Source of the DNA: Schmidtea nova
Taxonomy: Eukaryota
Assembly (NCBI GenBank): GCA_044892505.1
Contig: CM097882.1
Span: 543,430,001 to 543,494,000, forward strand
Length of the DNA: 64,000 nt
Reading direction: 5' to 3'
Shown here: positions 1 to 38,848 of the stretch, piece after piece
Position numbering within the stretch: position 1 is the first letter of the stretch
Layout of the letters: the number at the start of each line of letters is the position of its first letter
Notes under the pieces: generated by a model
The model's input: the letters and a program-made list of their open reading frames with translations, nothing else
Databases searched by the model: none
Told to the model about the DNA's origin: nothing
Program-made: the position numbers and the translations under genes

Positions 1-3000
1 ACCTTGTTACCCGTCACTATGTAACGTTGGTACTGTAACAAGTGGGTGGGTATTCGCAATCAGTGAGCGTCGTCAATACGAAACTATGATTGACCGAATA
101 TCTCCTGGGTCCAAGGGCTACCGATAGAAGGTTTCTTGCCCATTTTGTCCCCTTCTTCGACGATTTATCTTTAAGCATTCAACAAAATTTTATCGGCAAT
201 TCAACATTAATATTCTACCTAACTATAAATTCGTGATTACATCCAAATAAATCATTCCGAGCATCAAAACACTAATAAAACATTAAATTTTACTTATATT
301 ATAATTTATGTTAATTATTAATGAAAGTATTCTAAAATAAAATTTTTAATTTACATTTGCATTTACGATAAAATCAAGACTTTAATTCTTAATTTGTGAA
401 TATTTATAACTAATTTACTTTTATAACTAATTGATATTCCGAAACAATTTGTTTCAATCCATCATTCAATCCACAACAAGCCGAACACCATTCAAATTCA
501 CCAAGCATAATTTTCTACGCAAATCATTTCTCTCTATTGGCAAAACAAGTAAATTTTTAAATTAATTGATATGCTGAAATTAATTCTTTTCATAGCCCTC
601 AATTTCAAAAACACAGGTGGAAACTCAGTTCGGAAATCTTAGCAACTACGTCTTATCACTTTAATCTATTTGACAGATTTGAATATCTAACAATTATCCA
701 AACCATTAATCCAATCGACAAATCCCAATTAATCAACAATCCGCGACAATGTCTAATGATCATGACTCCAATAAACCAGCGTTGTGGTCATCCATGTCAG
801 TGACAAATACTGCTTAACAATATCTTTTCTTAGTGCTGAATTTAATATATGTACTTTATTTGCATTTTTACTTTTTATGTAAAATGGTTTTTATCATACA
901 AAAGGGTAACAATTAATTATTTTAATTAAAATACTTAAAGTTTTGCTAGACGAAATATAATAATCTTTGAATTTCATGTGAAAATAAATTGATTGTCACT
1001 AGATGAAATATAATATTATTTTAAAATAATATACCAAATTTTACTTTAAAAGGCACCATAAATTCACAATAATACAATTTTTTAACTTAAACATTATTGA
1101 TTTTAAAGGCAATCTTGAAAACTTCCTAATATCCGTTACAAATAAAAAGGTTCCACACCAAATGTTTGTGGTGGGTGAATGGATGAAACCTTGGCATTGT
1201 CCTTCTGGAGGCATGCATGTCTACGCATGATGTGGGATACTATCATTTCGAGCTTGATTGTTGATACACTTTTACAGGTTTATTATGAATTTTTCATTGA
1301 TAGTGCAGGAGATTGTATGTGATTATATGTGTCTGTATGTTGACTTGAATGTTGGATGAGAATAAATAATTTATTGGTGGATGAGGTGTAGTATGATGAC
1401 TGTGTGTTCTATTGTTACTGTTGGGTTTGTGTGTGATTGTATGATGAGCGATTTAAAAACAATTGAGTGCTTGTGAGTGTGGTTGGACGTATAATTCTAA
1501 CTAGCATGTCTGTGTGAAATTTTTGGGGTAGCTGGTTGGTGTGTATGTGATTGTTGAATGTTATTGAGTGATACGGTGTAGGTGTGTCTATTGTATTTTA
1601 TACGTATGTTGTTTGTATATTAATATGGATGATGCTATTGAGTGAAAAGGGTGTAAATCTTTGCAATGGGTGATGTATTAGTATTTTAAGATGTCGTGGG
1701 GGGTTATATTATAAATTAAATAAATTGTATAAAATATTTCTAAAGTTAAAATAAAAATAAAAAAAAAATTTTTAAAGTTAAACTAATGGTAATGATTTTT
1801 AGATCAAGATAATAATAATAATTTTTAGATCGAAATAATAATAATATTTCTCATAATGCTTTTTTACAAATTTTTAAGTTTTAAAATTTCTACGAAAAAC
1901 AATTAACGATAAGGTTTATAATTTTTTATAATGTCGATTTGAATTTACAATTTTTATACTTTAAGAATAGAATAAAAAAAAATTTCTATAAAATCTCGAA
2001 TTCAGATTTTTTATAAAATAATAAAATTTATTAATATAATAATAAAATTTCAATCTAAATTTTCATGGGGTTTAATATAACTTTTGATTTTCAAATTCTC
2101 GGGAATTTTACGAAATGATAAAATCCTTTTATATATTAATAATATTAGGAACCAAATTTGGTTTACAATTTTTCCATATAAAATCTTTTCAACATAATAA
2201 AAAGCAAATTTCTATTTCTGATCCAAATGAAATGATAATAAATTTTTATCCATAAATTCAAGATCTAAATAAGCATTTAATCTAAAAAAACTTTACCTGC
2301 TAAATAAAAATAAAATAAAAATAAGTTATAAATTTTTCAACGAGTATTTTTAACCTCAAGCAAAGTAAATTTCGGTTTTGTTGAGCATGAATTTCCCAAC
2401 TAAGTGTGCGCGAACCTTTCGGGACACTTCACTCAGGAATTTCAGGCTCTCGAAAAACAAGATTCACAGGAAAACTTATTTAGACCATAATGAGCTTTAA
2501 TTCAGATTAAATCAATACTTGTTTCACAATTTGTTTCACTTCATGAGCATTATTCTAGACTTGAGCATTATTTCGAACCATTTTCTTTTCATCATCAGCA
2601 TCCATTTTTCTTGCATTTTCTTATGAGATGAACGTTGTTGAGAGTGCGAAGGTGAAGGCGAGTACGAGTCGATTTTTTAATCAATAATATTTCCTATTTT
2701 AGATTTCAAGACATGAGTTAGAAATTATTATGTTGTATTACGAAATTGCTTATGTAGATAATAAAAATATGATACTCTATTATAATACAAATCATTAGTA
2801 TAACAAAACCTTGCTCTTGGCCAAACCGCGATTCCCCAGTTGGGATGACGCGAATTTGGATGTATGAGCCTCACCTTAAAGTGGAAATATGGGCTGGCCG
2901 ATTACCAATCAGACAACGATCCACCCAGGCTACTAACAGATCCGCACAACCAAGGCTGGACGGATCGTCAGAAGATATGGGAGAAAAAAAAAAAAAAAAA

Positions 3001-4171
3001 TTTTTATTTATTTTCATAATTTAATTTAGTTATCGAATTTCAATGAGATCTTTCCTGAATTATTTTGGGAATTTGTGGCTCGTGATAATGATTATGACAA
3101 CAAAAAAGAAACTAAGCTATTAATCATGAAAATACTTTAATAATATAAAATTGACCATAATAAATAAAATGACAAATAACATATTAAATAAAAAAGGGGG
3201 GAATGGGATGATCGTCAGGCATGACGGACGACCATTCCAATCCCCAATGAGAATAACCAAAATCAAACAAATCCTTACGTTTGTCCAATTAACTTCTGCT
3301 ACGATTTCTTTCAAACAAATTAATTTTTTCTTAGAAATTTGGAACGATTTTTCCACAAATTTTCTTGGAATCAACTTCTGATAGTAACTTCTTGGAATCA
3401 AATTCTGATATTAGCTTTTCTCTTCTCTTCTTGAAATCAAATTAGCTTTTCTTCTTGCAATCAAATTCTCAAGTTGGATTTCACAAAAGTTATTTTTCGC
3501 AATTTCTCCGTAAATTAATCAAGAAAAATTTTCCACCAAATTCTGAAATCTGCCATTTTGATGGCGGTATATATACCATCAAATTTTTTCTATCTCCGGT
3601 AGTGCAATAAAACAAATTGTTCTAGAAGTTTCTCTTAATTTTTTCTAAATTAATTCTAATGATTTTCCGAAAATTAATTCCATATTTTTGTATAATAATT
3701 TTTTATAAACTATAAATAATTTATTTTAATTAAAAATTTTTATGTTTGAATCGAAATTTGTTCGATTTGATTTAATTTATGATTTTCGATCCATATTAAT
3801 TCTTTCTATTGTTATATGTGAAATTTTGTGATAAATTCACAATTTTCCTCTAGAATTGTGTTAATTTTTCTGCACTGAGGATTTTTATGACAAAATTCTG
3901 TTCTTTATGGGCACTTTCAATGGGTTTTCCGCCTATTCTAGCTTCCAAACATTCTGCTTTTAATTTCTCTCGAGATTTCCGTGGAAATATTTACAAATTC
4001 GCAGTTAGCGCGTACTCTACCGGTTGATGTATTTTGATTCCACTTCACCTTCTGATGCTTTCCGCTTAATTGTTAGATTTTTAATGGCAGCTAAGGCTAA
4101 AATGAAATCTTGCGCGCTCTCTACCTATTGGGTTATCGTTTTATTAAAACAAATTGCGTTTTGGCCCAACA
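1..4171 (-). repeat. 3' LTR (partial, continues left of window)
   Basis: Matches 24387-28558 and diverges right after ...ttggcccaaca at 4171. In spot checks the only difference found was an A9 vs A10 homopolymer (about 1974-1982 vs 26360-26369). Confidence 0.93.
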
Positions 4172-5274: not shown

Positions 5275-7212
5275 TTACACCAACGTCTCCTGAGGGCCGA
5301 AATGTAGGTTTCGCATTCCCCCATATAATTCATTTGTAGTTCGATATATATCTGCTTCTATTATTGACGGATTTATCGTTGGTGGTAGTCCTTGCATCCA
5401 CATTCCATTGAATTCTGATCCATTGCATATCTCATATTCGTCTTCCGTCTTTACTTCTTCTAAACTGATTCCATATTCGAACTTCTCGATGCTTGGCCAC
5501 TGTCTCTTTCTTTTCGTTTTTCTTTTACATCTTCCAGTGATTTTTGCATGTTGTGTGAGAATCAAAACCAATATTGCGCCTATTATTCCGGCAGTTATCC
5601 ATATCATTTTGATTGCTATTTTTGATTCCTCTACTGCTGCTGATATTGTTGTTGGAGATTCCGTTGTTGTTTGTACGATTTTGATCGGTCTCCCTCCTTG
5701 AATTATTCGTTCGGCTTCTTCCTCCGATATATATTTATTATAAACTGTTGGTTTGGTTGTTGTTAGTATTTGATCTTCTATACTGAATTCTCTGGTATCG
5801 TCTACTCGTCTAGGTAATTTCGAAATAAATTGACATGTTGGATCTTCATTTAATTTTTTGTAGAGGCATACCCGGTATTTAGTTCCTCGTTCCCATCCGG
5901 CTACATAATATTCCTCTTCTTCAATGAATGATTTTTCTTCTTTATTGCTCACACTTTTACACTTTTCTTGTTGTAGTTTTACTTCATAAATGCATATTCT
6001 AGCAATAAGATGTCCTTGTACGTTCTTGACTTTTATAATATCATTTTGAAAGAATTTTTCGGTTTCCTTTTGTATTTGGTTTGGAGTGATTGATATTTCT
6101 ATTTCTTTTCTGTAACCTTTGACTATCGTTGGTTTTTCTGTTACAGTTATTGTTGCTCTTGGGAGTCTTATTGCTTTTTCATCCGGTTCTCTCCCGCTTT
6201 CTGTGCTTGTTATTATTTGTTCTGTCGTGGTGTGTTCTTGACAAATTGGGACGAAAGTTCTCCATATGCATATTAGATACGTTGTTTTTGATTCTAACTC
6301 TTTGATTATCATTTGCTCCTTTCCCTTTACTGACTGTTGATAACATTTGCTAGGGTTGTCAAGCCCACTATTCATATCGACCTTTCTCCAACAAACCTTT
6401 TTGATTACTTCCTCGTGGTTGTTTATTAGTATTATTTCCGTGGATTTCGTTTCTACTATCAGAGGGTAATACGTAGTTGTTCCACTGGTTGTTGTAGTTG
6501 TCGTTATGATTTCCTTGGTGGGTTTTTCTAGACATAGTTTTTGTGTCCATATTCTTCTTATGCATATCGTATAGCTTGTTCCTGGCTTCAATCCTGGTAT
6601 TCTGAATTTTCCATTTTGGCCTGTCATTTGAAATTTACACGATAATTGTCTGTCCTTATTTTGCATATGGATGGTTTTTATCCAACAAATTTGAGTTATA
6701 GGCTCTCTCACATTGTTTGTTACCATCATTTCTTTTTCTTTCACTTCTATTGTTGTTTTGTTCTGGATCGTCATCATAACCTTTTTATCTTGTTCTTCTT
6801 CTTCGTTTTCTTCTTCATTTTCATCTATTGGGGTTTTTGTGACACTTTGTATTTTTTCTAGCCTGTTCCTCTCGTTTCCCATTTTCGTAATCATTTCTTT
6901 AGCTGCACAGATTGCTCTTATTTGATTTGTTCGATATATACATATTATATATGTTGTTCCTGATTCGAGTTTTTCGACCTTTTGTTCTTCTCCTATTGCT
7001 AATGCTGTTCTTATGCATTTCTGGTGATCACTGACTCCATTTTTCCGTATTGCAACTGTACATATTTTAATTATTAGCTCTCCTTTGATATTCGTTATCC
7101 ATATATTTTCTGTATCTGTAACTATTCTTGCCTCTGCTCTCCTCTGATCAAATATATAATCGATTGCTTTCACCCAATTCAACATTGTCAATAATATTGT
7201 CATAATTATTGT
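5275..7212 (-). other. C-terminal type-I membrane module: signal-like peptide, four Cys-containing FN3-like repeats, TM helix, cytoplasmic tail
   Basis: IIMTILLTMLNWVKA/ID at 7165-7212. Repeats end LESGTTYIICI, LKPGTSYTICI, LESKTTYLICI, WERGTKYRVCL. TM IWITAGIIGAILVLIL (5556-5604) is followed by a basic stop-transfer KRKTKRKR, and the protein ends ETLV*. Confidence 0.72.
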
Positions 7213-10200
7213 ATTTTTACCTGGATTTTTAAGTAGACATACCGTTCGATTTTCATAGTTGGAATTTTCTTGTTCATTCTTGTTCTCTTTATTTTCATCT
7301 TTGTTTTCATTGTTTTTATTCTCCCATTTCTCACTGTTTCCGTGATTTCCGTGATCACTGTTATCATCATTTTGCTGCTGTTCGTTGCTATCGTTGTCTT
7401 CATCGTCTGGTTTATCGTTTGATTTATCGTCATCGGGGTCGTTTAGATCACCCTCGGTTTCTTTTGAAATGTCGTCCTCGACATTTATATCCTTTATTAT
7501 TTCCCAATACAATTTGATAATTCTTTGTTCATCTAGTTTTATTTCACCCATTTTGCATTTCAATGTTCCAGCATCGTCGTGGAGATAACTCTTGTCTTTA
7601 TTTTTGATCTTTTTTCGCCATTCTTTAACCAATTCAAGTAGTTTTTCTCTCTTTGTTTTTATTTTCATTTCTTCGTTTGGCTTGTTTGTGAATCTGAAAT
7701 CTGGTCTTTTTAGTAGTGCTTTTGCTACTCTAGGTAATGTCCAATTTTCAATCAAAGCTCGCTCCATTAACACATTTTTATCATATTTGAACTCGTTGTT
7801 CACATTCATCAGTCCTTCTCCAGAGAGTGGATCTTTCCATTTTATCATTTTTGAAGCTACTATTTCATCTTTTCTTATCACTGCCCTTAATAATGGCTTT
7901 GGATTTAAACTCAGTATTTCGATGTCCTCTTGACTTGCTTTTGATAAAAGATACTTGGCTATTGTATAATAAGGTGATCTGTAGACATATGATAATACAG
8001 TTTCATTGTTGTTATCCCTTTCTTTGATACTTGACCCTGTTCTTAATAACTCCTCGATTAAGTCTTTGGACCCTCCTTCTTCTACCGCTAGCATTAATGG
8101 TGTTTGTCCTTTCCAATTTTTTATATTCGAGTGTTGTCCGCATCTTTCCATGAGTTTAATTATTTCCATAGCTCTTTTTCCTTCTCCCTTCCTCAAGGCT
8201 ACATTTAGTGGTGTTTCCTCATTAAAATCAGTCATTGTAAATAATATTGGCATCCGCTCCTTGATTATATCAATGAAATTTGGTGTTGCCTTTCCTCTGG
8301 CATACTCATTTATTATCCGATTTAGTCCGTTTATTATTTCGAATACGTGTTTGCCTTCTGTCCATTCCGGCATAATTTCTTTTGCTGTTCCTATTATCAG
8401 ATCCATTTCTTTTATATGTTCCATTCTCGCATCATCCGTTATTTTTTGCTTAATTTTTAATGTTGGACTTCTCATCTTTGGTGCAAAGAATGTTGCTCCA
8501 CAACATCCACATCCTTTACTCTTTCTAAGCATGCATATTTGTCTTGTCTGTGATCTGGTCATTATCCTCCTTTCCTCTGGTTCTTTTGTCGCAGTTTTTT
8601 CTACTCGTTTACATCTACACACGTTCACGTATATCGGTCGAACTAACGGATTGTTGACTAATTTTACCCGGATGTTATTTTCGCTAACAAATATGACTTC
8701 ATATGGTCCTTTTCCCGTTCTCTGTAATTTTTTCGCTGTTCCTGGGATGATTTCTGGTGTTTCGACTATCACCCAATCGCCTAGCTTGAACTGATGTTCG
8801 TGTACATTTCTCTTTTTGTCATGTAGTTCTTTGTAGCTCTCTTGATTGAATCGTATATTCATACCTGCAACTTTCCAAATTTCTTGCATTCGCTCCTTGA
8901 ATTTTGTTACGTAATCGTCGATTTCCATATATTGTGATATTGGTGGTTGATATTCAAGATCCATTGGCATGTTACATTCTCTGCCGTACATCAATTTAAA
9001 CGGACTCATTTTTGTTGCCGAGTGAATCGACATACGGTATGCCATTAGACATAGATTCACATATTCATCCCAATCCTTTTGGTGTTTACTGACATAATTT
9101 GACATCATCTCAATCAATATTCCGTTAAATCTCTCCGTTTGTCCATTTGTTTGGGGGTGATATGGTGAAGTTCTCAACTTAGCAATTCTGAAATAATTGG
9201 TAACTTCGTTGATGATCTCGCTCATAAAATTTGTTCCTTGATCGGTTAATATTTGTTTTGGTGTTCCATATCTACAACATATTTCTTCGACTAATATTTT
9301 GGCTATTGTTCTAGCTTTCTGATCTGGCATTGCAAATGCTTCTGGGAATTTTGTTAAGTAATCAGTTATTACTAATATATAAACATTTCCATGATTCGTT
9401 TCTGGTAATGGTCCTACTACATCCATTGCGATCATTGTCATAGGTTCTGGTGGAATTGGCATTGGTTTTAAAGGTGTTTTCATTTTACTGCCAGTGCTTT
9501 TTCGCGTTGCACATATTAAACAATTCCTAATCCATTCTTTCACATCTTCTCCAATATTTGGCCAAAAATACTTCTGTTTTAATCTCGCTTCCGTTTTCTT
9601 AGCTGACATATGTCCACCAAGTTTTCCATCGTGGTATTGCATCAAGATGTCTTTCCTTCTACCTTCTGGTAAACACATGAGTCTTTTTTCTCCGTCCATT
9701 GCTAATAACCAGCCTTTTTCGATTGTATATTTGTGCCTGTTTTTCTCCATATGCTCCTTTAGTTGGCTGTTATGATCAAAGATTTTCATATCATTCTTAT
9801 TCAAATATTCGATGATTAATTTTAGCTCTTCATCTTCATTTTGTTCTTGTTGTAGTTTAGTGAAATCAATATCTTCTGCGATTATCATACATATTCGCCT
9901 GACATCTTTATCCATTAGTTCCTCAAACATAAACCTTGACATGCAATCCGCATTTGCATTCGCTTTCCCTGACTTGAACTTTATATATGGCGAATATTCT
10001 TGCAGCTGCATTGCCCATCTCATTAATCTGCTTGACGCTTCTTTGTGCTGGCCTAACCATACTAACGGTTGATGATCTGTTGTGATGTATATTTCGTGAC
10101 CCCATAATAGATATTTGAAATGTTTAATCGCCTGAATGATTGCTAGCGCTTCTCTTTCCGTTACCGAGTAATTCTTCTCGTGTTTTCGAAAGGTTTTGCT

Positions 10201-13200
10201 GTAATATCCTATCACTCTTTCTCTCCCATCTTCATCCCATTGTCCTAGTACGGCTCCTGACGCGTATCCACTTGCGTCGGTTGCTAATAGAAATGGTTTT
10301 TTGAAATCTGGGTGTACTAATATTGGCGATGAAATTAACTTGTCTCGCAACTCTTCAAATGCATTTTGTTGCTCTCTTTCCCAGATAAATGGTGTATCTT
10401 TCTTGACTAGCTCTTGTACAGGCTTTGCAATTCCGGCATAGTTTTTAATAAATTTCCGATAATAACCACATAGTCCTAAAAATTCTTGTACTTGGGTTAT
10501 GGTTTTCGGTATAGGACAATTTTTTATCTTTTCGATATTTCTTGGGTCCGGCTCTTTTCCTTTAGCTGATACAATGTGACCCAAAAAGGTAACTTTTGGT
10601 TTTGCCCAATCACATTTTGATGGTTTCAATTTTAATTTCCATTGCCTTAATCGGATGAATACGTTTTGGATATCTTGTAAATGTTGTTCAAACGTACCCG
10701 AGTAAATCAATAAATCGTCAATATATACCATACATTGTTTTATCCCGTGAGTTACAAAATTCATGCATCTTTGAAATGACGCAGGTGCATTAGTTAAACC
10801 AAATGGCATCTTCTTGAACTGGTACAGATCTTTTCCGATGGTAAACGCTGTTTTCTCTCTGTCCTCTTCTTTCACTTTAATCTGCCAGTAACCGCTTTTC
10901 AAATCTAATGACGTGAAGTATGCTGCACCATGTAATGTTTGTAACATTTCGTTGATATCTGGTAACGGGTATGTATCTCTCTTGGTTACTGCGTTCAATT
11001 GTCGATAATCAATACAAAATCGTTGGGTACCATCTTTCTTTTTTACCATTACTACTGGAAATTGCCATGGTGAACAACTTGGTTCAATCACATCTGCGTC
11101 TAACATCTTTTGCACTTCGGCTTCGGCCACTGCTTTCTGCGCCTCTGCTAGTCGATATGGTCTCAATGTGATCGGTGTTTCGTCTGTTAGGGGAATAGTA
11201 TGTTGAGTTACATCACTCGTTCCCAAGTCTAAATCTGATGCTGCAAAGATGTCTTTAAATTCTAACAATACTGTTTTTAGTTTTTCTTTTTCAATATCGT
11301 TTAAAATTTCACTGTCGATTACCCATAACTCCTCCACTTTACTTTCATCCTCTTGAATTTTAGGTAATTCAATATTCATCATCGGGGTTAATTTTCCCAA
11401 TCTCTCATTTTCGTAAATGATTTTGTCTTCCTCATCGAAATTGGTGATGTTGATTGGTATTTCGTTTTCTTTATTGACGTTCACTATTTCTCTTGCCAAT
11501 GGTAACTCTTTTCTCATCTCAAAATTTTGATTTGGCTCAAATATCATTTCCCCGACTGCCGTGTCTTTTACTTTGGTGAAACATATCATTTGCGTTCTTC
11601 CTGGTACGACAATTTTCTTTGAACACCTTACTTCCGTTTTCATTGAACAGATTTGTCCGCTTTTATCTTTCAATCTCATCGTACTCAAATCGATAACAAT
11701 CTCCTTTAATAATTCTGGCATTAAGTCTGTACCAATGATACATGAGGCACCCAATTGTTTTATTACAGCTAAATAAGTAGACATCTCTACGTCTTTATAC
11801 TTAATATCTGACCATATTTTCCCAATAACTTTGACTGATTCTTTATTGCACGTGACCACATCCATTGGTGCTTCTTCAATGCAAGGCCATAACATGCCTG
11901 GTATCATGTTCATGTTTATTGCTGATATATTTGCACCGGTATCTATCATTGCATCCATTTCAACACCGTTGATTTCAATGGCAATAGTAAGGGTTGGTCC
12001 AGCTGATGTTCTCATCATGGCTATTGTCATTGTTTCTAGATTTTTCTCTTCGCTTTGTGGTCTGTTTAGTATTGTTGGGTCTGGTCTGTTTAGTATTGCC
12101 GGGTCAATCATTGCCCAATTTGGTTCGTAATGTGCTGGGTAGAAATTTGGCATTGGTAACATTCGTAGTCCAGCTCGTGTTTTTTCTCTCACTGTTCCTG
12201 GTCTTTGTGGGTTAGGGTATGTCATTGGTGGTAAATTTTGACCTTCCCATTGTTTTGATTTTTCTGCTTCCCATATTGGTGCGGTACCATTTGATCCGGA
12301 GTTCGTTCCTCCTTGATTTCCTTTGTCATCGTTATCACTATCGTCATCATCCGAATCTTTCCTTCGGTTATCCCACCATCTTTTCCATCCACTAGGTCTG
12401 GTTTCTTTATATTTCGTTCTCTCTGCTTCGTTTTTCATAATGAATCTAAATTTTCTACCGATCTCTTCGTCGGTTCCTTTCATCTTGGTCAATATTCCAA
12501 TTAACCTCTTTATTCTATGAATGTCTTTTGAATGCCCATGCAATACCATAGTTTTAGCCAAAAATGGTAGGAATCCAAGTGCCATTTTCCAATTGATTTG
12601 TCTCTCTCTTTTATAGATATCAAAACAAGCTAGCATCTGAGTTATAATAACTCTGACTATTTGAATAATTAGGATTATCCCTAATATTCCTGCCATCATC
12701 TGTCCAAATACTAAGAATCTTCCCCACATGGCTTTCATCATATTATTGGTTGCGTGTTTAAAATGTTCTGGTGACAACAATAACTCGTAGTTCGGACTTC
12801 CCACGAAATTTGTTCCACCGGTTATGGCTATAATATTTGATAATACTGCTTGTCTTTGGGTTGGAAATAGTATATGCTTTCTCGCTGCTTCTAAATCTGC
12901 ATCTCTGTACACTCCACTGTGTGAAATATCTATGGGTTTAAATTCTATTTCTGTTGTTAACTCTGTTAATCCAAATCGTTTAGGTGCTGATACAATTTGC
13001 CGATTTGGAAAAACTACCCATTTTGCATTTCCCATGTCATACATTGGTCCATACGCATTACTGCAATTGAACTGATGGGGTTCGTAATTTGGTGGATTTA
13101 TTATTCTCGTTACTGCTTGTACAAATCGACTTCTTCCCTTGTAGAATATTTCCAATTCGTTAGTACATCGGTTTTCTGGTATTCTTGGTCTTTCCGGTAG

Positions 13201-16200
13201 TCTTGCTATCTCTTTTTTGCATTTGTATGTATACATAACTTCTCCCACAATTCGACCGAAATGTCCTTCTTGCAGTGGTAATAGTGGTATTGCGTTATCT
13301 GGATTCGTTATAGCCATTGCTAATTTGGTTCTCAAAATTTCTCTGTTCAATATACAATCGTTTTGTATCAAATCATGATATACTTTCTCTGTGGTTGCCA
13401 TACCTCTATGGTATAAGAAATCCATTTTATTATTTGCGTACAAATACGTTTTAATGTCCACTGTATCTGGTTTTGGTGCTGCTTCAGCTATCACTGTTGT
13501 AGATAGGAAAATTCCTTTGTAATTCGTTTTTATTACTAATCTTCCGCATTTACTGACGGTTTCACCTTTGATGAATCTCATTCCCACTCCTGGATCTTTT
13601 GCTAAAATTGTTGTTGATATAATTGCTGTTGGTGTATTTACTAATTTAAGTTTTTCCGTCGTCTCTTTATGCTGGAATGTTCTTGTTCTTTTGAGCTGTT
13701 CCATTTCTTGTCTGGTTGAATCATCTTTGGGCTCGTCATAAACTTTTCCTAGTATTTCCTCGAATTCAGCTTCTTGTAATAACATTAGTCGACATTTATT
13801 CGCATCTGCCTTATAAATCAATGTTGATGCACCAGTATTACACGAGGTATGTTCTGCAGAACAACTTGGGAATTTTCTCATTGATAGCGTGTCTGGATCA
13901 AAATATCCCGGATATGTTTCTAGTTTCACTTGATACATCTCTATTACTACTACATTGCTGACCACTTTTCCTAATAGAGTGTATGCTCCTCCTTTACAAC
14001 TTCCGTCCGGTTTATTGACGTATCCGGCTGCATAAACTCTTGTTATTTTAATTGCTCCTGGTTGGGCAGCTATTATTATGTTTCCTGCTAACGATATCCG
14101 TTTTGAGGTAAACGCTTCATTGCACTTTTCGCTATCCAGTGATATTACGGTTGATTCCATTCCTGGTTCGATAATTGTTGAATATGAATATTGTCCACAG
14201 TAATACGCAAATAACTTTCTCGTAACCGTGCATTCTCTTATTTCTGCTTTGATGAGGTCTGATTCCTGATACACGTTGTAACTTATTTTATTCACAATTC
14301 TTTCCAATTTTTTCGGCGTGGCTTGTTTACAATCTTCCGTATCTTTTAATGAATATTTCTCGCTAAGCTCGATTTTGTCACAATCGTATACCACAAACGC
14401 TGTTGCTCCCTTTATGCACATCATCCAAATCAATATTGTGGTCAATATCGCATTCATACTCTTCCCATATGTTTTTTGATCGCGAAAATTCATTGATCCT
14501 TCGAATTCTGTTAATAATTCTCTCAACTTTACTTGCATGGTTTCTGTTTGATCTATTTTATCTACTGAGTTGATGAATGTTTTCCAACCTCCTTGTTTCA
14601 TTACATACGGCTCTATCAGTTTCTCAATGATTTCCGTTATTGTGAATATATGACCATTTGAACTGTATCTGGGTGTTCTCCGTTTGTACAAGACGATCAT
14701 ATTGTACATTAAATATGCCAAGCTTACTAAATATTTTGCTGGTTCGTTCGTGTTGTTTGTTAATTTTTCGATAATTTCTTTCATTTCTGCAGGATTTCTC
14801 AACGTCATTCGTACTTTTCCTTCGATGATTTTTGAGATTATTGGTTTAATCGTTATCCACAGTTGTTTGGCTTCTTGTTGGATGTGGTCTCTTTTTAACG
14901 CTCTTTTTATTTCTGGGTTTGCCAATGCAAGCATATCAGATACTAATTCATTTATCCATCGGATTCCTTGTTCGGTTATTGGTGTATTACCTTTCACTTG
15001 ATTTGCAACTGACACTAGTTTGCTTACTTTTAGTTGTAATTGTTCCGTCCTGCTTACTGATGTTGGTTTTTGATTTCTTTCTGTTTGATCTTTCGCCGGC
15101 CTCCCTCTTGGGCGTTTATCTATCATCGTTCCAGCTTCTCGTCTACTTAGCTGATTATTCGCGATTTCTCTCGATGTTGTCGCTCCTCTATCTGTGATCC
15201 AATTACTCCATTCGTCAGTTGTAGAATTTTCTCTTGCTCGTTTTTGTACTTTTTCTCGGTCGGTTTCATCATCGGTTGCTGTGATTTTTTGCCGTTTTAC
15301 CCAAGGAATTCTCTGGTCATCGGTTGTTGTTTCATTTTCTATGTTTGAGAATAAATCCCCTGAGTAAAATGCTGTTTCATCGTTTTCTCTATTCGCAATA
15401 TTTGTCAGTTCTTCTAATACGTCTTCATCAGTTGTTTCGACAATAATTTCACTTGCAGCTTCCGGTATTTCTGGTTCGTCTAAATTTCCGAATAATTTTC
15501 TCATTTGGGTTCGATTTCCCTCTTTTCTGATTAGTTCATTGCCTGCAATTTTAGAAACAGTTAAATGATTACTTGTTCCGATTCGTATCGGGGTTACACC
15601 AATTTCTATCTCATCATCGAGTGATCTTCCTTCGTACTGTAGATGAAATGGTAATTCAAATGGCAGTTTCTTTTTAATCTCTTTTATTTTCGTGGTTGCC
15701 AATACTTCCATTTCTTCCTTTCCAAAGTCTGGAAAATGGATTTTTAATCCACATTTTTGCGGTTCGTCACTTTCCCATTCCATTTGCCTCCATTTTCTTC
15801 TAAGCTCATCGAATTGTTCTGGATACCAAGTGTATACTCGTCCATATTCCTCGATTTCCTTCACGAGCATTGTCATGGTTAATCTATCCTTGCCATTCTC
15901 GAGAATCCATTTTGCTAATTCGACTACCGCTCTTCGTTGATTTTTGGCACCTTTTTCTAAAATATCGATTAACTGTCTACTTTTTTGGGCTTCAGTTCTC
16001 TCTAATACTTCAGGGTCCATCAGTTCATCCATATCTACAGGACGTAATCTCGAGGTTGTTTCTTGTTTTCTTAGCACGCTGATTCTGGGAATTGTCAGCT
16101 TTTCCCTTACGTCTTCCTCAATTTTGCATGAAACATAAATATCTCCTTCACTTTGATATCGAGATTTTTTATCTAATAGCAAGTGTTGCAAGATAAATTT

Positions 16201-19200
16201 TGGTGCTCCTGATGCTATATTTTCCTCTTTTTCTGGTTTATGATAGCAGCTGCAGAGCTTTTCTGGATAAATTTCTTCACTATGACCCTTCTCTGAATTG
16301 TAGGATGATCCTATAGACAATGTTACTTTTTGATCGAACGGCCATGTTAATTCCTCGTCATTGATCCCTTTACAGATGATATAAAATAATGACGTATGAG
16401 TTCCTTTACCAACTCCATCTCCGTTTGGATAAATTCTCATTTTTAATTTATATCCGCCTGGGTAAGTGTAAAATTGTGGGCTTGTCAATCGCGTTACTTC
16501 ACCCTCCTTTGCTGCTCTCACTTTATCTGCCCAATTTGAAATTCTCCATTTGAATGGTGCAAGATATTTCTCTTCGCATATGTTCTCGTCGACTTCCAAA
16601 TGTTTCCCAGTTATTTCTGATGGTTCGTAAATCTCATGGGTTTCCTCATATAACAGTTCCTCAGGTATTCGTTCTGGTTCACATGTTACCCATCTATCCT
16701 CCACATTTGGTTGTTCCCATCTGTATCGATTTTCTAATTCTATCCATGTCTTTATCCACGGCGTTGGTTTACAATCTCCATAATGAAGAGGTTTTATTTT
16801 CCCCTTTATTTCATTATCCGCTCTCCAAAAATTATATAAATCGATTATCTGGTCTAGTTTTCCGACCATTTTTCTTTTAAATCTCCTCACGTGACCATCG
16901 TCTTTCTCTGGTTCGTCCATTGCCCATATTTTAACTGTTTGACCGTCTTCCCAAATACCCAGTTTATATAAAGGTGTCTGATCATCTTTTTCTAATACAT
17001 GTTTATTGTACACGATTATTACATCTTCTATTAATCCGTCATCACTATTTTGTTTCACGTTATGCATAATTTTCTCATCGATTATCCGTATGAATTCGTC
17101 TACCGTACAATCTGGTTCTATTTCAATTGTTTGTTCGTCTCCACTTGGCAACGTTAGATTGACTTTTATCGTTTCCGCTCGATTCTTTGATCTCTGATAG
17201 CCGCCATATTGACTTATTAATTCGATTGCTCGTTTATCATCTAATCTCACTAACTCGGTATCTCGTACGAACTCTACAAATCTCTTCATTGATGCTGGTC
17301 TTCTTCTATTTATACTATCGATCATTTTCCTCGTCTGGTCTATTGCTTGTGTCGAAAGCATTAATCGATTTTCCCATATTGCTTGTTCGGCCAATTTTAA
17401 TAATTTTGGTCCGATTTCATAATCGTATCTATCTCCAATTCTTGTCAGTAGTTTCATCACCGTTTCTTCAATCGCGTTCTTCTTTAACGTTAAGATATTC
17501 AACTCGTTCGGCCATATCATAGCATCTACTAGATGTATTCCCTTTTTGATTCGCCAATTATTCAAATAAAGATAATCGTTTTTAAAACTGCTACCCATTT
17601 TCTCTTGCATCCAGTCATATAATGCGTTAGTATTTGGGTCGTTTATTTTTATTCCTAATACATCGATTTCGGGGTGGTGTACTTCTATCGTATACTCTTG
17701 AGTTGGCGTTTCTTTTAATTGCTTCTTGTATTCCGCTATTGAGTTGTTCCACGCTGCGGTGAATACTTGATTTTCTACCTGATTTGCTTGGGTGACTTCC
17801 TTCATAAACTTCTGATATACTTTTTCATCAATAAACTCCCGATTCTTCATGGCTAATTCAACCTTGCCTGTTACTTCTCCGATGATATTCCAATCGTCTT
17901 CACTTAGCAACGCGTTGCTTGATGTTTCGGTATCACTTTCTTCGCTAGCCAAAGGTGCTTTTAAATCGTTGTTTTCCTCACTTGACGGAAATAAGTCACC
18001 TCCTAAACTACTTACTTCGCTAATCTCGTCTTCTGGATCTGTTTGATCATCATTTCGCATTCTCATCATATTTATTTTATACACATTTTTAAGATCTCTT
18101 TCTTTTTCCTTTTGCGTTCTTGCTTGTGACCAATTCATTGTTGCGTCCCATCGTTTTCTTTTCAGTGCTTCTACTTCTTCATCTGTCAATGTGTTATTCG
18201 CTTTTCGAATTGAAGCTTCAATTTTCTGCAGTAGTGCTCGTTGAAGTCGGTTTCTGGTTATAATTTTTTGAGCTTTCTTTGTGATCTCTTCAACTTCTTC
18301 AGTGCTAGTTTTTTCCAATTTCTGATTTAACTTTCCTACTTCATTCGCGACAATAGTTGTTATTTTCTGTTCTATTTCCTTCGCTTTTATTTTCACTATT
18401 TCTTCCAATTCCTCACAGGTGTTGCAAACATTCCCACTGTCTCTTTTTTCTTTTCTTCTTTGATTATATTCTTGAATGAATATTTTCCTTTCTTCTTCGT
18501 TCATTGATTTTATTGAAACTTCGAATTCTCCATCTTTTTCATTAATCTCTACATCTGGTAACTCTGTTATCATTTCCTTCACTTTTTCTATTACATTCTT
18601 CTGCAATTTACTCATTTCCTCTGGATCTTCTTTATCTTCGCTTTTAACTCTCATCATGTTAATTTGCCTTGTGTTATTTCCTCGATTTTTCCATCTCTCT
18701 TCAATTTCCCGTGCTTCCTCCAACTGAAGTCTCTGCCATTCTGCTTGTTGTTTCGTTTGATTTTTGTTCGTCCTTAACTTGTGAGGCTCGGTGATTTGCA
18801 AAGCATTAATTCTTGGCTGTTGTGGTTGGCTGACTGTTGTTCGTTCGATTAATTCTCTCAGTTGTTCAAGTTCCTGCATCACATTGATTTGTGGTGTTTG
18901 ATTTTGGTTTTCGGTTCGCTGTGGTGCATTGACTTGGTTTGGGCATTCTCTCGCCATATGTCCAGGTTGTTGGCATTTGAAACAATTGGCGTTTCTTCTA
19001 AAATTTCCTCCATTATTGTTATTTCTTACGTAGTAATTTCCTGCACTAGCATTTACGGTTCTGCATACATTTTCTGTATGACCTTTTCTACCACAACTTT
19101 GACATGTTTTAGTGCTATAACATTCATGACTCAGATGTCCAGATTTTTGACAAATGTTACATATTTTGCTGGTGAATAAATTGTTATTCCCGTAATTATT

Positions 19201-20067: not shown

Positions 20068-20944
20068 AGATAAACTTTCCGATGTTGCAAACTCTGTTTG
20101 TTCGGATGAAGGCCTTCTGTTGTGTGTTCTTGAAGATTTCGCAGTTTCTTTCTCTTTGTTTTCTAGTAGACTTAGCTCTCTGTCTAAATTTTGATCTTTG
20201 TCTTGATTTTTACGCTTTAATAGCCGCTCTGCGATACTCCCAGTATTCCCTGCTTTGTCAATTGTTGATTATTTCTCTCTTACGGTTAGATTCTCTTTTA
20301 TATTTTTCTTCTTTTACTTCTTTCCTCTTCAATGAGTCTTCTTTTTCTTCTTTTTCTTCCTTTATTCCTGTTTTCAAAACTGATTCACTTGAATTTGATG
20401 GTTTTGGTTTGATGTTATCTAAAAATATAAAAAAATGGATCCATTTATAATTAATTTTGTTCATCATTTTAGGCTTCTTCCTCTTTCCCACCGTTCCGAC
20501 ATCGTCGCTACTCACCCCCCATAATTTAGGTGGATTTTAATTTATCTATACCTCGTAATAATTATCTATGTAGGGTCGTACGGTTTACCTGGTACCTTCA
20601 TCCATAATAATAATGATAATAATAATAATAATACTAATTATAATAATAATTTGCACAAAACTTTTCTTAACATAACTCTCATACTTCGTTTCGAAATCAT
20701 GATTTTCACAAATACTTTATTTATTTATTGTCGTCGTTCTCTTTCAGATTTTCTGATGTTTCCAGCTAGCTTTTTATAATATTTCTTAATGGATGTTACA
20801 ATTCTTACGCTGTCATTCTATCCTATTTTTCCTAGATGTACCTTCTTTAATCTCTTTTTACTAACTTCTATTTTCTCAAAATGCATTTTATTTCTTCTAC
20901 GAGCTCTCAAAATTTCTCACATGCATGAATTTCTATATATTTTT

Positions 20945-21517
20945 GGATCCTCAAAGTCTCTCATACATGAACTCTCAAAGTTTCTCAATTATCTGGACTC
21001 TCAAAGTCTCTCATACATGAACTCTCAAAGTTTCTCAATTATCTGGACTCTCAAAGTCTCTCATACATGAACTCTCAAAGTTTCTCAATTATCTGGACTC
21101 TCAAAGTCTCTCATACATGAACTCTCAAAGTTTCTCAATTATCTGGACTCTCAAAGTCTCTCAATTATCTGGACTCTCAAAGTCTCTCCCAGAGCGCTCA
21201 ATTATCTGGACTCTCAAAGTCTCTAAATTACCTGGACTCTCAAAGTCTCTAAATTACCTGGACTCTCAAAGTCTCTCAATTATCTGGACTCTCAAAGTCT
21301 CTCAATTATCTGGACTCTCAAAGTCTCTCACATACATGAACTCTCAAAGTTTCTCAATTATCTGGACTCTCAAAGTCTCTCACATACATGAACTCTCAAA
21401 GTTTCTCAATTATCTGGACTCTCAAAGTCTCTCATACATGAACTCTCAAAGTTTCTCAATTATCTGGACTCTCAAAGTCTCTCACATACATGAACTCTCA
21501 AAGTTTCTCAATTATCT
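20945..21517. repeat. Tandem array, 50-bp higher-order unit built from 24-26 bp subunits sharing ACTCTCAAAGTYTCTCA
   Basis: TCAAAGTCTCTCATACATGAACTCTCAAAGTTTCTCAATTATCTGGACTC recurs at 20951, 21001, 21051, 21101, with subunit shuffling thereafter. Confidence 0.95.
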
Positions 21518-22488: not shown

Positions 22489-22815
22489 TTATGAACAAAA
22501 TACTACGATTTTGTCATCAGTTGTCTGTTTGCAGATTACACATCTCTTTATTTCTCTAGAGCACGGCTGGCAATAATACAAATGCCCACACGGCATGAAT
22601 AAAATGTTCGCTTCTCTTTGTCGACAAATATAACATCCTTCGAACAAATCGATCTGTTGATTTATCGATCTCTCTAGCTTGTCCATAATTTTATCGATTT
22701 TACCAATCCATTCTTGTATTTTTAAATTAAAACTCGGATTATTCGGTCGCAATCGTCGTAATTCATAAATTGTCTCTAACGAAATATTGTTTGTTGTTCC
22801 TACAATTCCTTTCAT
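22489..22815 (-). CDS. Small IAP-like C3HC4 RING finger protein (108 aa from first ATG) in element leader
   Basis: CYICRQREANILFMPCGHLYYCQPCSREIKRCVICKQTTDDKIVVFCS* fits the IAP/MGRN-type RING with an aromatic C-terminal tail. The ORF-track start at 22848 is GTG; the first ATG is at 22815. Confidence 0.85.
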   Translation of the reverse strand: MKGIVGTTNNISLETIYELRRLRPNNPSFNLKIQEWIGKIDKIMDKLERSINQQIDLFEGCYICRQREANILFMPCGHLYYCQPCSREIKRCVICKQTTDDKIVVFCS

Positions 22816-22974
22816 TTCATTTTCTCGTTCGAATCTCTCGCTCAACACTCAATTCACCGTAACATATGCTCAATCGCTTCCATCTAAAATATTCATGATG
22901 ATCGGTGTTTATAACTTTTTGAATTAACCATTCATTATGATTTGAACGAAAAATAAATAATAAATTATATTTTT

Positions 22975-24133: not shown

Positions 24134-27100
24134 AGTAAAATCAAACACAATTTTCCGCTGTTTCTGTCAAAATTTTATTTAACAGTTTGTTGATGTTTTA
24201 TGAAAACTTTCATTAAGTCTCGCGCGAACTCGTTTTAGTTGCTTTTCGATTTTTTCAAGCAAAACAAACTCAAATCCCGGCTGAGCCCCCAAATTTTTAT
24301 ATGGTGGGTCGTTGATCGTCAATATGACCTTGACGTTGCTATGGCCCTCATCAACAACCCAACACACAAAAATATTGAAATTTACCACCTTGTTACCCGT
24401 CACTATGTAACGTTGGTACTGTAACAAGTGGGTGGGTATTCGCAATCAGTGAGCGTCGTCAATACGAAACTATGATTGACCGAATATCTCCTGGGTCCAA
24501 GGGCTACCGATAGAAGGTTTCTTGCCCATTTTGTCCCCTTCTTCGACGATTTATCTTTAAGCATTCAACAAAATTTTATCGGCAATTCAACATTAATATT
24601 CTACCTAACTATAAATTCGTGATTACATCCAAATAAATCATTCCGAGCATCAAAACACTAATAAAACATTAAATTTTACTTATATTATAATTTATGTTAA
24701 TTATTAATGAAAGTATTCTAAAATAAAATTTTTAATTTACATTTGCATTTACGATAAAATCAAGACTTTAATTCTTAATTTGTGAATATTTATAACTAAT
24801 TTACTTTTATAACTAATTGATATTCCGAAACAATTTGTTTCAATCCATCATTCAATCCACAACAAGCCGAACACCATTCAAATTCACCAAGCATAATTTT
24901 CTACGCAAATCATTTCTCTCTATTGGCAAAACAAGTAAATTTTTAAATTAATTGATATGCTGAAATTAATTCTTTTCATAGCCCTCAATTTCAAAAACAC
25001 AGGTGGAAACTCAGTTCGGAAATCTTAGCAACTACGTCTTATCACTTTAATCTATTTGACAGATTTGAATATCTAACAATTATCCAAACCATTAATCCAA
25101 TCGACAAATCCCAATTAATCAACAATCCGCGACAATGTCTAATGATCATGACTCCAATAAACCAGCGTTGTGGTCATCCATGTCAGTGACAAATACTGCT
25201 TAACAATATCTTTTCTTAGTGCTGAATTTAATATATGTACTTTATTTGCATTTTTACTTTTTATGTAAAATGGTTTTTATCATACAAAAGGGTAACAATT
25301 AATTATTTTAATTAAAATACTTAAAGTTTTGCTAGACGAAATATAATAATCTTTGAATTTCATGTGAAAATAAATTGATTGTCACTAGATGAAATATAAT
25401 ATTATTTTAAAATAATATACCAAATTTTACTTTAAAAGGCACCATAAATTCACAATAATACAATTTTTTAACTTAAACATTATTGATTTTAAAGGCAATC
25501 TTGAAAACTTCCTAATATCCGTTACAAATAAAAAGGTTCCACACCAAATGTTTGTGGTGGGTGAATGGATGAAACCTTGGCATTGTCCTTCTGGAGGCAT
25601 GCATGTCTACGCATGATGTGGGATACTATCATTTCGAGCTTGATTGTTGATACACTTTTACAGGTTTATTATGAATTTTTCATTGATAGTGCAGGAGATT
25701 GTATGTGATTATATGTGTCTGTATGTTGACTTGAATGTTGGATGAGAATAAATAATTTATTGGTGGATGAGGTGTAGTATGATGACTGTGTGTTCTATTG
25801 TTACTGTTGGGTTTGTGTGTGATTGTATGATGAGCGATTTAAAAACAATTGAGTGCTTGTGAGTGTGGTTGGACGTATAATTCTAACTAGCATGTCTGTG
25901 TGAAATTTTTGGGGTAGCTGGTTGGTGTGTATGTGATTGTTGAATGTTATTGAGTGATACGGTGTAGGTGTGTCTATTGTATTTTATACGTATGTTGTTT
26001 GTATATTAATATGGATGATGCTATTGAGTGAAAAGGGTGTAAATCTTTGCAATGGGTGATGTATTAGTATTTTAAGATGTCGTGGGGGGTTATATTATAA
26101 ATTAAATAAATTGTATAAAATATTTCTAAAGTTAAAATAAAAATAAAAAAAAAATTTTTAAAGTTAAACTAATGGTAATGATTTTTAGATCAAGATAATA
26201 ATAATAATTTTTAGATCGAAATAATAATAATATTTCTCATAATGCTTTTTTACAAATTTTTAAGTTTTAAAATTTCTACGAAAAACAATTAACGATAAGG
26301 TTTATAATTTTTTATAATGTCGATTTGAATTTACAATTTTTATACTTTAAGAATAGAATAAAAAAAAAATTTCTATAAAATCTCGAATTCAGATTTTTTA
26401 TAAAATAATAAAATTTATTAATATAATAATAAAATTTCAATCTAAATTTTCATGGGGTTTAATATAACTTTTGATTTTCAAATTCTCGGGAATTTTACGA
26501 AATGATAAAATCCTTTTATATATTAATAATATTAGGAACCAAATTTGGTTTACAATTTTTCCATATAAAATCTTTTCAACATAATAAAAAGCAAATTTCT
26601 ATTTCTGATCCAAATGAAATGATAATAAATTTTTATCCATAAATTCAAGATCTAAATAAGCATTTAATCTAAAAAAACTTTACCTGCTAAATAAAAATAA
26701 AATAAAAATAAGTTATAAATTTTTCAACGAGTATTTTTAACCTCAAGCAAAGTAAATTTCGGTTTTGTTGAGCATGAATTTCCCAACTAAGTGTGCGCGA
26801 ACCTTTCGGGACACTTCACTCAGGAATTTCAGGCTCTCGAAAAACAAGATTCACAGGAAAACTTATTTAGACCATAATGAGCTTTAATTCAGATTAAATC
26901 AATACTTGTTTCACAATTTGTTTCACTTCATGAGCATTATTCTAGACTTGAGCATTATTTCGAACCATTTTCTTTTCATCATCAGCATCCATTTTTCTTG
27001 CATTTTCTTATGAGATGAACGTTGTTGAGAGTGCGAAGGTGAAGGCGAGTACGAGTCGATTTTTTAATCAATAATATTTCCTATTTTAGATTTCAAGACA

Positions 27101-29062: not shown

Positions 29063-29211
29063 GTCTTAAACACACACACACACAATTTATCTATGTACAA
29101 AAAATTATTATTATTAAAAATTATATTTCATTAGTCTTTGTTTCGTTGCACATGGATTGCAATGTCTTTGTTTCTTTGCACATGGATTGCATTGTCTTTG
29201 TTAATATTTGT

Positions 29212-29354
29212 TGATGAGTCATACTGATGAGTCATACCAATGAGTCATACTGATGAGCCATACTGATGAGTCATACTGATGAGTCATACTGATGAGTCAC
29301 ACTGATGAGTCATACTGATGAGTCATACCAATGGGTCATACTGATGAGTCATGG
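29212..29354. repeat. Minisatellite, 11 x 13 bp (TGATGAGTCATAC)
   Basis: Eleven units counted, 8 with perfect ATGAGTCAT. Confidence 0.95.
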
Positions 29355-38790: not shown

Positions 38791-38848
38791 ATCTGTTAAT
38801 TAATACTTTGCTTATCTCACACGTTATTTCATTATATATTATACATAT

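Follow-up and report, generated by a model that had tools for sequence, protein, structure and literature searches.

A Burro-type gypsy retrotransposon of Schmidtea nova whose single polyprotein is predicted to enter the endoplasmic reticulum twice

A giant Burro-type gypsy retrotransposon from Schmidtea nova probably makes one polyprotein that passes twice into the endoplasmic reticulum (ER) and is cut by host signal peptidase and by the element's own protease, yielding Gag and Pol in the cytosol together with a class III fusogen and an FN3 surface protein. We consider the double threading likely because distant relatives have kept both of the internal signal-like segments.

The element and its copies

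The window, the whole stretch analysed, comprises 64,000 nucleotides (contig CM097882.1 of assembly GCA_044892505.1, positions 543,430,001 to 543,494,000). It contains an intact 28.6-kb Burro-type gypsy retrotransposon, assigned by its match to the published description of Burro1 (size, single ORF, domain order). The two LTRs, 20.1 kb apart, are 99.95-99.98% identical. Their TG...CA ends together with a 4-bp target-site duplication (GAAT) are those of Ty3/gypsy elements (Metaviridae), as is the order protease (PR), RT, RNase H, integrase (IN), and a profile built with the Pol of three relatives had Ty3 Gag-Pol as its top match. The main features are the following:

1..4171, minus strand: 3' LTR with TG...CA ends, 4,256 bp in all, the last 85 bases lying left of the window
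5275..20268, minus strand: single ORF of 4,997 codons between stops; counted from its first Met (19968) the product has 4,897 aa
7228..7245, minus strand: last of ten protease-site-like motifs, 11 residues upstream of SP2
7669..8166, minus strand: ankyrin repeats (profile match)
8599..11982, minus strand: protease, RT, RNase H and integrase in gypsy order (profile matches)
14569..14901, minus strand: Bcl-2-like helical domain with a GGW motif at its end (weak; profile E ~1e-3 to Bcl-xL)
16120..16554, minus strand: MATH/TRAF domain (E 1e-23)
18937..19806, minus strand: Gag capsid domain (PF03732, E 1.6e-5) and three CCHC knuckles (PF00098)
22489..22848, minus strand: upstream accessory frame with a C-terminal IAP-type RING finger (PF13920, E 2e-13)
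24270..24292, minus strand: primer-binding-site-like stretch, recognized by sequence, about 10 nt inside of the 5' LTR
24302..28558, minus strand: 5' LTR, 4,257 bp

The primer-binding-site-like stretch presumably belongs to tRNA-Pro. The RING frame is likely to be the last exon of a B-IAP-like gene. Pfam recognizes Bcl-2 in 5/9 rows, the window copy not being among them, and an ESM Atlas search with this region gave nothing useful. Upstream of the MATH domain a profile search gave weak ubiquitin-fold matches (E 0.03-0.2); the interval from MATH to the Bcl-2-like domain and that from protease to RT had no Pfam match.

Many copies in the genome are intact and near-identical, a frame of at least 4,990 aa being open in 56 of 110 scored copies. 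A further 28 of the 110 belong to an amplified deletion class in which only the last 1,346-1,350 codons are still open; in all four such copies fetched the part corresponding to about 9414-20501 of the window is absent, so that the FN3 membrane module is retained without env. A pN/pS comparison of this module among the window copy, a longer copy and four copies of the deletion class was uninformative, as the synonymous differences numbered just 0-6. No relatives of the element were found among the viral contigs and phages searched.

Two predicted signal-TM pairs and their ectodomains

The preliminary description had named two signal-like and two transmembrane (TM) segments, with a basic stop-transfer cluster after the last. 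All four are present in one 4,997-codon minus-strand frame, and the cluster carries a net charge of +9 within 15 residues. In order of translation the membrane-related features are:

14398..14457, minus strand: internal signal peptide 1 (SP1), aa 1938-1957, ending KGATA, with a predicted cut between ATA and FVVYDC
12721..14397, minus strand: Env ectodomain, class III (chuvirus/gB-type) fusion glycoprotein by profile and model, with 14 conserved Cys and sequon N2401
12643..12718, minus strand: TM1, aa 2517-2542, a stop-transfer segment with predicted return to the cytosol
12544..12603, minus strand: short conserved hydrophobic stretch downstream of TM1, aa 2556-2575, 10 uncharged residues, KD19 1.16
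7165..7212, minus strand: internal signal peptide 2 (SP2), aa 4353-4368, ending WVKA, with a predicted cut between VKA and IDY
5815..7155, minus strand: four FN3-type repeats with four Cys each and acidic or Thr-rich linkers between (repeat 2 modelled, the others aligned)
5545..5607, minus strand: TM2 (segment 5556-5604, aa 4889-4905), followed by the basic stop-transfer cluster
5278..5289, minus strand: C-terminal ETLV, a PDZ-type motif of the form [S/T]-x-V

Together SP1, TM1, SP2 and TM2 take the first four places among all uncharged 11-mers of the ORF (KD values in falling order 3.17, 3.15, 2.42 and 2.28; the next has 2.05). Their number by itself is near chance: four hydrophobic uncharged segments were observed against a shuffle mean of 1.9, and at least four occurred in 21 of 200 shuffles. 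What lies beyond chance is the positions of the four segments and their conservation in relatives. Both signals have the layout of cleavable ones, with a basic n-region, a short h-core and small residues at -3 and -1 (13/13 rows for SP1; 10/10 for SP2, whose cut sites were picked post hoc).

For SP1 the -3/-1 rule of signal peptidase is satisfied at the exact offset in all 13 Env rows (background 0.105), while the residues themselves vary (A, T, G or V at -3; A, G, S or T at -1), and in every row the h-core ends 5-11 residues upstream. The rows share 31-92% pairwise identity; five of them are 71-92% identical and the set therefore amounts to about nine independent lineages. The count leaves out P0004, which begins within Env, L018, nearly a duplicate of L014, L007, identical with P0002, the partial row L010, and L011 and L012, which have 20% identity. 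An alternative site three residues further in fits 11/13 rows, the window copy not among them, and two more offsets fit 8-9/13. SP1 of L008 falls below the 11-residue threshold.

Between SP1 and TM1 lies an ectodomain that models as a class III fusogen of the chuvirus/gB type. It matches PF24664 with E 1.3e-69; the model matches chuvirus-like glycoproteins with E down to 1.9e-24 and herpes gB/GP64 with E down to 1.8e-8, the TM-scores being low (0.2-0.4) because the C-terminal half of the model is poor. Over half of the whole Env model pLDDT is below 50. Twelve of the 14 Cys columns are conserved in 13/13 rows, and the remaining two in 12/13 and 12/12 rows. The hydrophobic stretch after TM1, which the preliminary description had missed, is conserved in relatives (KD19 1.16-1.69). 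It is likely an amphipathic or re-entrant helix on the cytosolic side and could complicate the path of the chain.

An SP2-like segment with a -3/-1 site is found in all ten polyproteins that extend past the integrase (h9 2.57-3.39), those of L015 and L017 lying below the 11-residue threshold. TM2 has at least 21 uncharged residues in 9/10, the exception being L014 with 11. The C-terminus reads [S/T]-x-V in 9/10 (chance 0.007 each; L013 is without it); we take ETLV to be a class I PDZ-binding-type motif, and its conservation is new in this analysis. By sequence the C-terminal product thus has the predicted layout of a type I cell-surface protein with a PDZ ligand, a signal being followed by the FN3 ectodomain, a single TM, a basic cytosolic flank and [S/T]-x-V.

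The model of FN3 repeat 2 has a pLDDT of 76 and a fold match over 79 residues with rmsd 2.5 and a Z of 8.6, which is moderate only; among the matches, receptors for cytokines and for adhesion score equally well, no specific receptor standing above the others. FN3 folds are also found inside cells. Pfam fn3 scores one of nine repeats (E 0.006), BLAST among the repeats gave no mutual matches, and the fn3 clusters of the ESM Atlas at 0.82-0.84 serve as a lead only. The C-terminal 678 aa searched against 1.84 billion representatives gave a single match, to an unrelated repeat protein (E 4e-5). Among relatives the ectodomain measures 210-519 aa and is highly variable, both in sequence and in the number of repeats. 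L008 carries, as a third signal-TM pair, an additional complete signal-FN3-TM cassette between Env and RT; as it pairs a signal with a TM, the parity of membrane crossings is preserved.

A repeated protease-site-like motif, new in this analysis, occurs in ten copies at domain borders on the cytosolic side, one just upstream of the protease and one upstream of SP2. All ten lie in predicted cytosolic segments (chance ~0.07), none between aa 1395 and SP1. The pattern was defined with the sequence in view, which inflates its shuffle control. In the window copy sequon density does not tell lumenal from cytosolic compartments (one sequon in Env, one, N4503, in the FN3 part where 3.6 are expected, 16 in the first cytosolic segment), and a furin-type R-x-K/R-R site is absent from both ectodomains. 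2A-like ribosomal skipping was rejected, the motif being found in 0/12 proteins. Contigs of four runs (kind unrecorded) aligned to the element gave no interpretable splice joint near SP1 or SP2.

The domain order, the pairing of the four segments as signal and TM, the folds of both ectodomains and their conservation are thus evident from sequence and models. The alternating cytosol-lumen topology put forward in the preliminary description gains support from the comparison: from the SP1 pattern, the Env cysteines, SP2 and the full-length TM2 segments, further from the modelled class III and FN3 folds and the extra cassette of L008, and it also fits the PDZ-type ends and the placing of the protease-like motifs.

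Proposed path of the chain and alternative readings

We propose that Gag and the accessory domains would be made in the cytosol, after which SP1 would engage the translocon and bring Env into the lumen, signal peptidase cutting between ATA and FVVY. The SP1 helix would be left on the upstream product; as the interval from aa 1395 to SP1 has no protease-like motif, it could serve as tail anchor of the Bcl-2-like domain, which ends 65 residues before the cut. TM1 would halt transfer, and PR, RT, RNase H, IN and ankyrin repeats would therefore remain cytosolic. SP2 would reopen translocation for the four FN3 repeats and TM2 would end it, leaving a cytosolic tail with the PDZ-type end, and the cytosolic copies of the repeated motif would be cut by the element protease. 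We infer cleavage by both proteases from these features. Least certain is the last step, in which the FN3 protein, parked on PDZ scaffolds at cell contacts, may assist transfer driven by Env as its partner in adhesion or attachment; this we suggest only tentatively.

If subgenomic mRNAs arose by splicing or trans-splicing, or if translation began internally, SP1 and SP2 could instead be ordinary N-terminal signals, as in errantivirus env, the long ORF then serving mainly for Gag and Pol. A Met at -20 opens SP1 in the window copy and most relatives have one 13-22 residues before the cut, a CAG stands 20 nt ahead of the first Met of SP2, and the deletion class keeps only the last codons open. 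However, the Met is not conserved (the nearest in P0006 is at -34, L009 lacks one, and the h-region of P0002 begins upstream of its Met), and basic n-regions precede the h-cores in the relatives whether or not a Met is present. An env mRNA would still be translated through TM1 into Pol, and the full-length RNA would still cross SP1 and TM1 to reach Pol; the topology problem therefore persists, and we regard this explanation as unlikely. Still less probable is that both signals are uncleaved signal-anchors, with the same topology but trimming by the element protease alone on the cytosolic sides. In several relatives the site does lie within 22-27 consecutive uncharged residues, which is a membrane-spanning length, and cleavage at SP1 and SP2 is a prediction; but the runs of the window copy have just 16 and 15 residues, and the -3/-1 classes are kept in 13/13 rows although the residues vary, a pattern difficult to account for unless cleavage is under selection. 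The N-terminus of class III fusogens is, moreover, normally free.

A reading of the signal-like segments as hydrophobic patches arisen by chance, with ectodomains that stay cytosolic or are non-functional relics, would agree with the near-chance segment count and the few sequons of the window copy; yet h-core, -3/-1 pattern, 14 Cys, TMs and PDZ-type ends are conserved over lineages 31-59% identical, and many copies are intact and near-identical, which makes this reading hardly credible. A much stronger contender, although short of an even chance, accepts the topology and takes the FN3 protein for a host-directed modulator (decoy receptor or disruptor of signalling or junctions) with no role in particle attachment. 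The variability of the ectodomain, the tie of cytokine with adhesion receptors, the deletion class that keeps the FN3 module without env and the other host-modulating domains of the element (IAP, MATH, ankyrin, Bcl-2-like) speak for it; against it, no single receptor match outranks the rest, and 1:1 co-translation with Env would suit a role at the particle or budding site.

Returning to the double-threading proposal, its widest form is doubtful: Burro-type elements might be enveloped retroelements whose single polyprotein, with Pol between two ER excursions, gives a class III fusogen and an adhesion-like FN3 protein that docks on PDZ scaffolds of cell junctions and directs cell-to-cell spread, the Env signal peptide also anchoring the tail of a viral Bcl-2 and whole signal-FN3-TM cassettes being gained as modules.

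Significance and comparison with known systems

Burro1 is highly expressed and has been tied to planarian stem-cell survival (as cited in PMC13465017). The threading model would account for a workable in-frame env between gag and pol, the published oddity of Burro, and makes of the last 650 residues, unannotated before, a second membrane protein, likewise predicted, whose PDZ-type end is conserved. Because the predictions name precise N-termini, protease sites and a motif for targeting to junctions, it becomes directly testable whether these elements form enveloped particles or remodel the host cell surface. If true, two surface proteins and RNA-virus-style threading of a polyprotein would widen the expression strategies known for LTR elements.

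Burro1/GYPSM1 from Schmidtea mediterranea, a giant gypsy element published in 2019 with env in frame between gag and pol, shares with the present element one giant ORF (4,873 aa in Burro1, 4,897 aa here), a Gag with three CCHC knuckles, MATH, Bcl-2-like domain, ankyrin repeats, an upstream RING gene and the position of env between Bcl-2-like domain (weakly supported here) and protease (PMC6431247). Its description also includes ubiquitin/SUMO-like and dUTPase-like motifs and names the upstream gene as BIR-RING (B-IAP). The env was linked there to gypsy Env and mononegavirus fusion glycoproteins, whereas ours models as class III, and the available part of that account makes no mention of signal peptides, TM segments, an FN3 membrane protein, a PDZ motif or a processing route (PMC6431247). 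Our literature search found neither a second (FN3/PDZ) membrane protein nor signal-peptidase processing described for Burro, though Grohme 2018 and Lee 2026 may contain either; the second surface protein is apparently undescribed so far.

GAG-ENV-POL errantiviruses with HSV/gB-type ENV occur in Nematoda, Bryozoa and Platyhelminthes. They likewise have a gypsy Pol with a gB-type Env ahead of it, and ectodomains between signal peptide and TM or between two TMs by DeepTMHMM. They differ in being described as ORFs in order, the main text using neither 'polyprotein' nor 'in-frame', and no second membrane protein after the integrase was found in the available part, though the supplements may list such elements (PMC13524379).

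The statement of the preliminary description that this is not the standard strategy of LTR retrotransposons holds for gypsy elements but not for LTR elements at large: Atlas virus and nematode belpaoviruses also have a single Gag-Pol-Env polyprotein, with a phlebovirus-like layout of TMs and cleavage sites of a host-processed precursor, so that one internal signal has precedent. They differ in belonging to Belpaoviridae and in that their Gn/Gc are of class II and form the C-terminal part, following Pol, which in the part of the account available is never placed between two lumenal excursions (PMC9094657).

The closest likeness in working, with no homology implied, is to the polyproteins of flaviviruses, alphaviruses and bunyaviruses. 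Their internal pairs of signal and stop-transfer segments are served by host signal peptidase in the lumen and a viral protease in the cytosol, and the signal of the flavivirus anchored capsid stays behind as an anchor. Here, in contrast, the element is reverse-transcribing, and the cytosolic blocks that separate its signals from the TMs are as long as 1,900 residues.

The element and its copies

The four segments under study lie in the sole long ORF of the window, a minus-strand frame.

Features of the element in the window (SP, internal signal-like segment; TM, partner membrane segment)
5275-20268, minus strand: polyprotein ORF (4,997 codons; 4,897 aa from the first Met)
24302-28558, minus strand: 5' LTR, flanking the ORF (LTRs about 4,257 bp)
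from 4171 leftwards, ending 85 bases beyond the window start, minus strand: 3' LTR, flanking the ORF
14398-14457: SP1; 12643-12718: TM1
7165-7212: SP2; 5556-5604: TM2

The complete element measures 28.6 kb; its LTRs, about one substitution and one gap apart, have TG...CA ends, and the target-site duplication is 4 bp. Pfam recognizes in the ORF Gag, CCHC knuckles, MATH, protease, RT, RNase H, integrase, ankyrins, a weak fn3 and the Monjiviricetes fusion glycoprotein (E 1.3e-69). A RING finger is encoded in a separate upstream frame. Many near-identical copies are present in the genome: identity is 99-100% for each of the 40 Env matches scored, and of 110 C-terminal matches scored, 56 lie within frames of at least 4,990 aa.

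The element leader carries a tandem array of 24-26-bp units between RING frame and gag (20904-21517). Outside the element lie a 13-bp tandem array (29186-29367), two arrays of 17-bp units with inverted arms about 3.8 kb apart (34585-34860 and 38496-39183) and several related palindromic MITE-like repeats (45349-45574, 50911-51102 and 63774-63998).

Predicted signal 1 and the class III Env

All four segments are where the preliminary description had placed them, and they are the top four uncharged 11-mers of the ORF by hydrophobicity. Their number alone is near chance, four being reached in 21 of 200 shuffles of the 5,000-residue ORF, so that position and conservation are the real test of the signals.

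SP1 and Env were compared in 13 rows, the window copy and 12 relatives (five database proteins, two metagenomic loci, five other-family copies from the same genome), with pairwise identities of 31-59%, except for the five genome copies (71-92% to one another). When the rows are anchored at the conserved aromatic-Asp-Cys, small but variable residues occupy -3 and -1 of the proposed ATA/FVVY site in all 13 (background 0.105), and in all 13 a hydrophobic core of nine residues (mean KD 2.3-3.5) lies upstream, its end 5-11 residues away. Eleven of 13 rows, the window copy not among them, also fit a site three residues further in, and two offsets upstream are compatible with 8 and 9 of 13 rows; the proposed site is thus the best candidate, not the sole one.

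Each of the 14 ectodomain cysteines is retained in 12 or 13 rows. Seven of 13 have a sequon at or adjoining N2401; in the five genome copies a sequon lies at 2442 in its place, and the sequence of locus L009 stops short of N2401. The AlphaFold model of Env (mean pLDDT 57, good in the N-terminal half) matches chuvirus-like glycoproteins (E 1.9e-24) as well as herpesvirus gB and GP64 (E 1.8e-8), by which the modelled Env is a class III fusogen. Such fusogens act outside the cytosol. TM1 is kept in all 11 rows checked. C-terminal of it lies a conserved uncharged patch of 10-11 residues between basic residues (KD19 1.16-1.69); because its length is small for a membrane span, and because Pol would end up in the lumen if the chain crossed again, we interpret the patch as an amphipathic or re-entrant helix.

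Further Env-bearing gypsy families of the same genome (L013-L018; frames of 3,200-3,450 aa, Env 34-37% identical to that of the window's element) have the same SP/TM layout, and additional downstream ORFs of 200-500 aa. In L009 a TGA (3058-3060) lies in frame between Bcl-2-like domain and SP1, and no Met precedes the h-region; either read-through controls Env/Pol here or the copy is broken. A distant (20%) stand-alone glycoprotein ORF (L011:328-3324) carries an N-terminal signal of its own together with a TM and an internal signal-like segment, and a furin-like site precedes its xxAYDC start.

The predicted second membrane protein and topology

In all 10 polyproteins extending past integrase, a short hydrophobic core is followed shortly by a -3/-1 site (SP2), the sites having been chosen post hoc and two cores falling below a stricter threshold. 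The C-terminal TM has at least 21 uncharged residues in nine of them (11 in L014). Between the two, the window copy has four repeats of four cysteines apiece; the model of repeat 2 (pLDDT 76) is an FN3 fold, for which domains of Dscam, LAR, Tie2 and cytokine receptors match about equally well at Z ~8. A net charge of +9 in the 15 residues directly after TM2 assigns the tail to the cytosol under the positive-inside rule and leaves the FN3 repeats outside, an arrangement that requires SP2. Nine of the 10 polyproteins, their tails otherwise dissimilar, end in [S/T]-x-V (chance 0.007 each), which is the class I PDZ-binding pattern; such an end makes sense in the cytosol only. L008:2-10282, a metagenomic relative, has an extra complete signal-FN3-TM cassette (aa ~1585-1771) between Env and RT and hence three predicted lumenal excursions; since the added segments are paired, Pol would stay cytosolic.

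Given the conserved signal/TM pairs, the class III Env and the FN3 ectodomain with its basic flank, the earlier proposal of a polyprotein alternating between cytosol and lumen is probably right. Sequon density lends it no support (one per ectodomain versus 16 in the first cytosolic block of the window copy). Signalase cleavage at both SP1 and SP2, judged from sequence, is a fairly likely event, the topology alone a likelier one.

The element protease would act on the cytosolic side. A six-residue protease-site-like motif occurs ten times, among other places at the capsid end, after the knuckles, after MATH, directly before the protease, at the RNase H/integrase junction, downstream of integrase and 11 residues ahead of SP2; each of the ten falls within a predicted cytosolic segment (chance ~0.07). 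The pattern was composed after the sequence had been viewed, so that the shuffle control (mean 0.4, maximum 3) exaggerates its significance. From aa 1395 to SP1 the motif is absent; after a signalase cut the SP1 helix would therefore remain on a product ending in the weakly supported Bcl-2-like domain (profile E ~1e-3; Pfam match in 5 of 9 rows, the window copy not among them). In 10 of 13 rows a GGW motif is found 45-82 residues ahead of the cleavage site. Bcl-2 proteins are tail-anchored, which makes it plausible, if speculative, that SP1 doubles as tail anchor.

Among the relatives, the polyproteins of P0002, P0003 and L008 each contain two or three aspartyl-protease-like motifs, one of them after integrase in P0003 and three of the D[TS]G type in L008; in P0001 the ankyrins precede the protease rather than follow integrase. 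Accessory ORFs lie downstream in metagenomic relatives (L007:11375-13473, L008:10617-12666), the 496-aa one of L008 resembling a DEDD-type exonuclease by eye.

Subgenomic expression of the signal-bearing parts is a possible alternative, since SP1 of the window copy starts at Met and copies of a deletion class reduced to the last 1,350 codons are common. This amplified class has a 1,346-1,350-codon frame in 28 of 110 scored copies; the four fetched (L002, L003, L004, L006) share a single degraded junction, have lost the equivalent of about 9414-20501, with gag, env, PR, RT and the start of IN, and keep the IN C-half, ankyrins and SP2-FN3-TM module open. However, Met positions near SP1 are not conserved among rows, and Pol synthesis must pass SP1 and TM1 regardless.

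Comparison with known systems

In anatomy the element agrees with Burro1/GYPSM1 of planarians, for which a 2019 account gives an ORF of 4,873 aa carrying env in frame between gag and pol (PMC6431247). On this basis the host is likely a dugesiid planarian. Burro1 expression and its B-IAP role are reported in PMC8532177 and PMC13465017. In the Burro accounts covered by the literature search, signalase processing, an FN3 membrane protein and a PDZ-type end were not found. Other papers describe GAG-ENV-POL gypsy elements of flatworms, nematodes and bryozoans having a gB-type Env with flanking signal and TM (PMC13524379), single Gag-Pol-Env polyproteins of belpaoviruses with a host-processed glycoprotein layout (PMC9094657) and capture of a chuvirus glycoprotein by BEL-Pao elements (PMC7642597).

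The feature is real, and Burro with its in-frame env was already known (PMC6431247). What is new is the predicted placement of Pol between two excursions into the ER, together with a second surface protein, likewise predicted, that is conserved and ends in a PDZ-type motif. The polyprotein would work like that of a flavivirus, yet it belongs to a known gypsy family.
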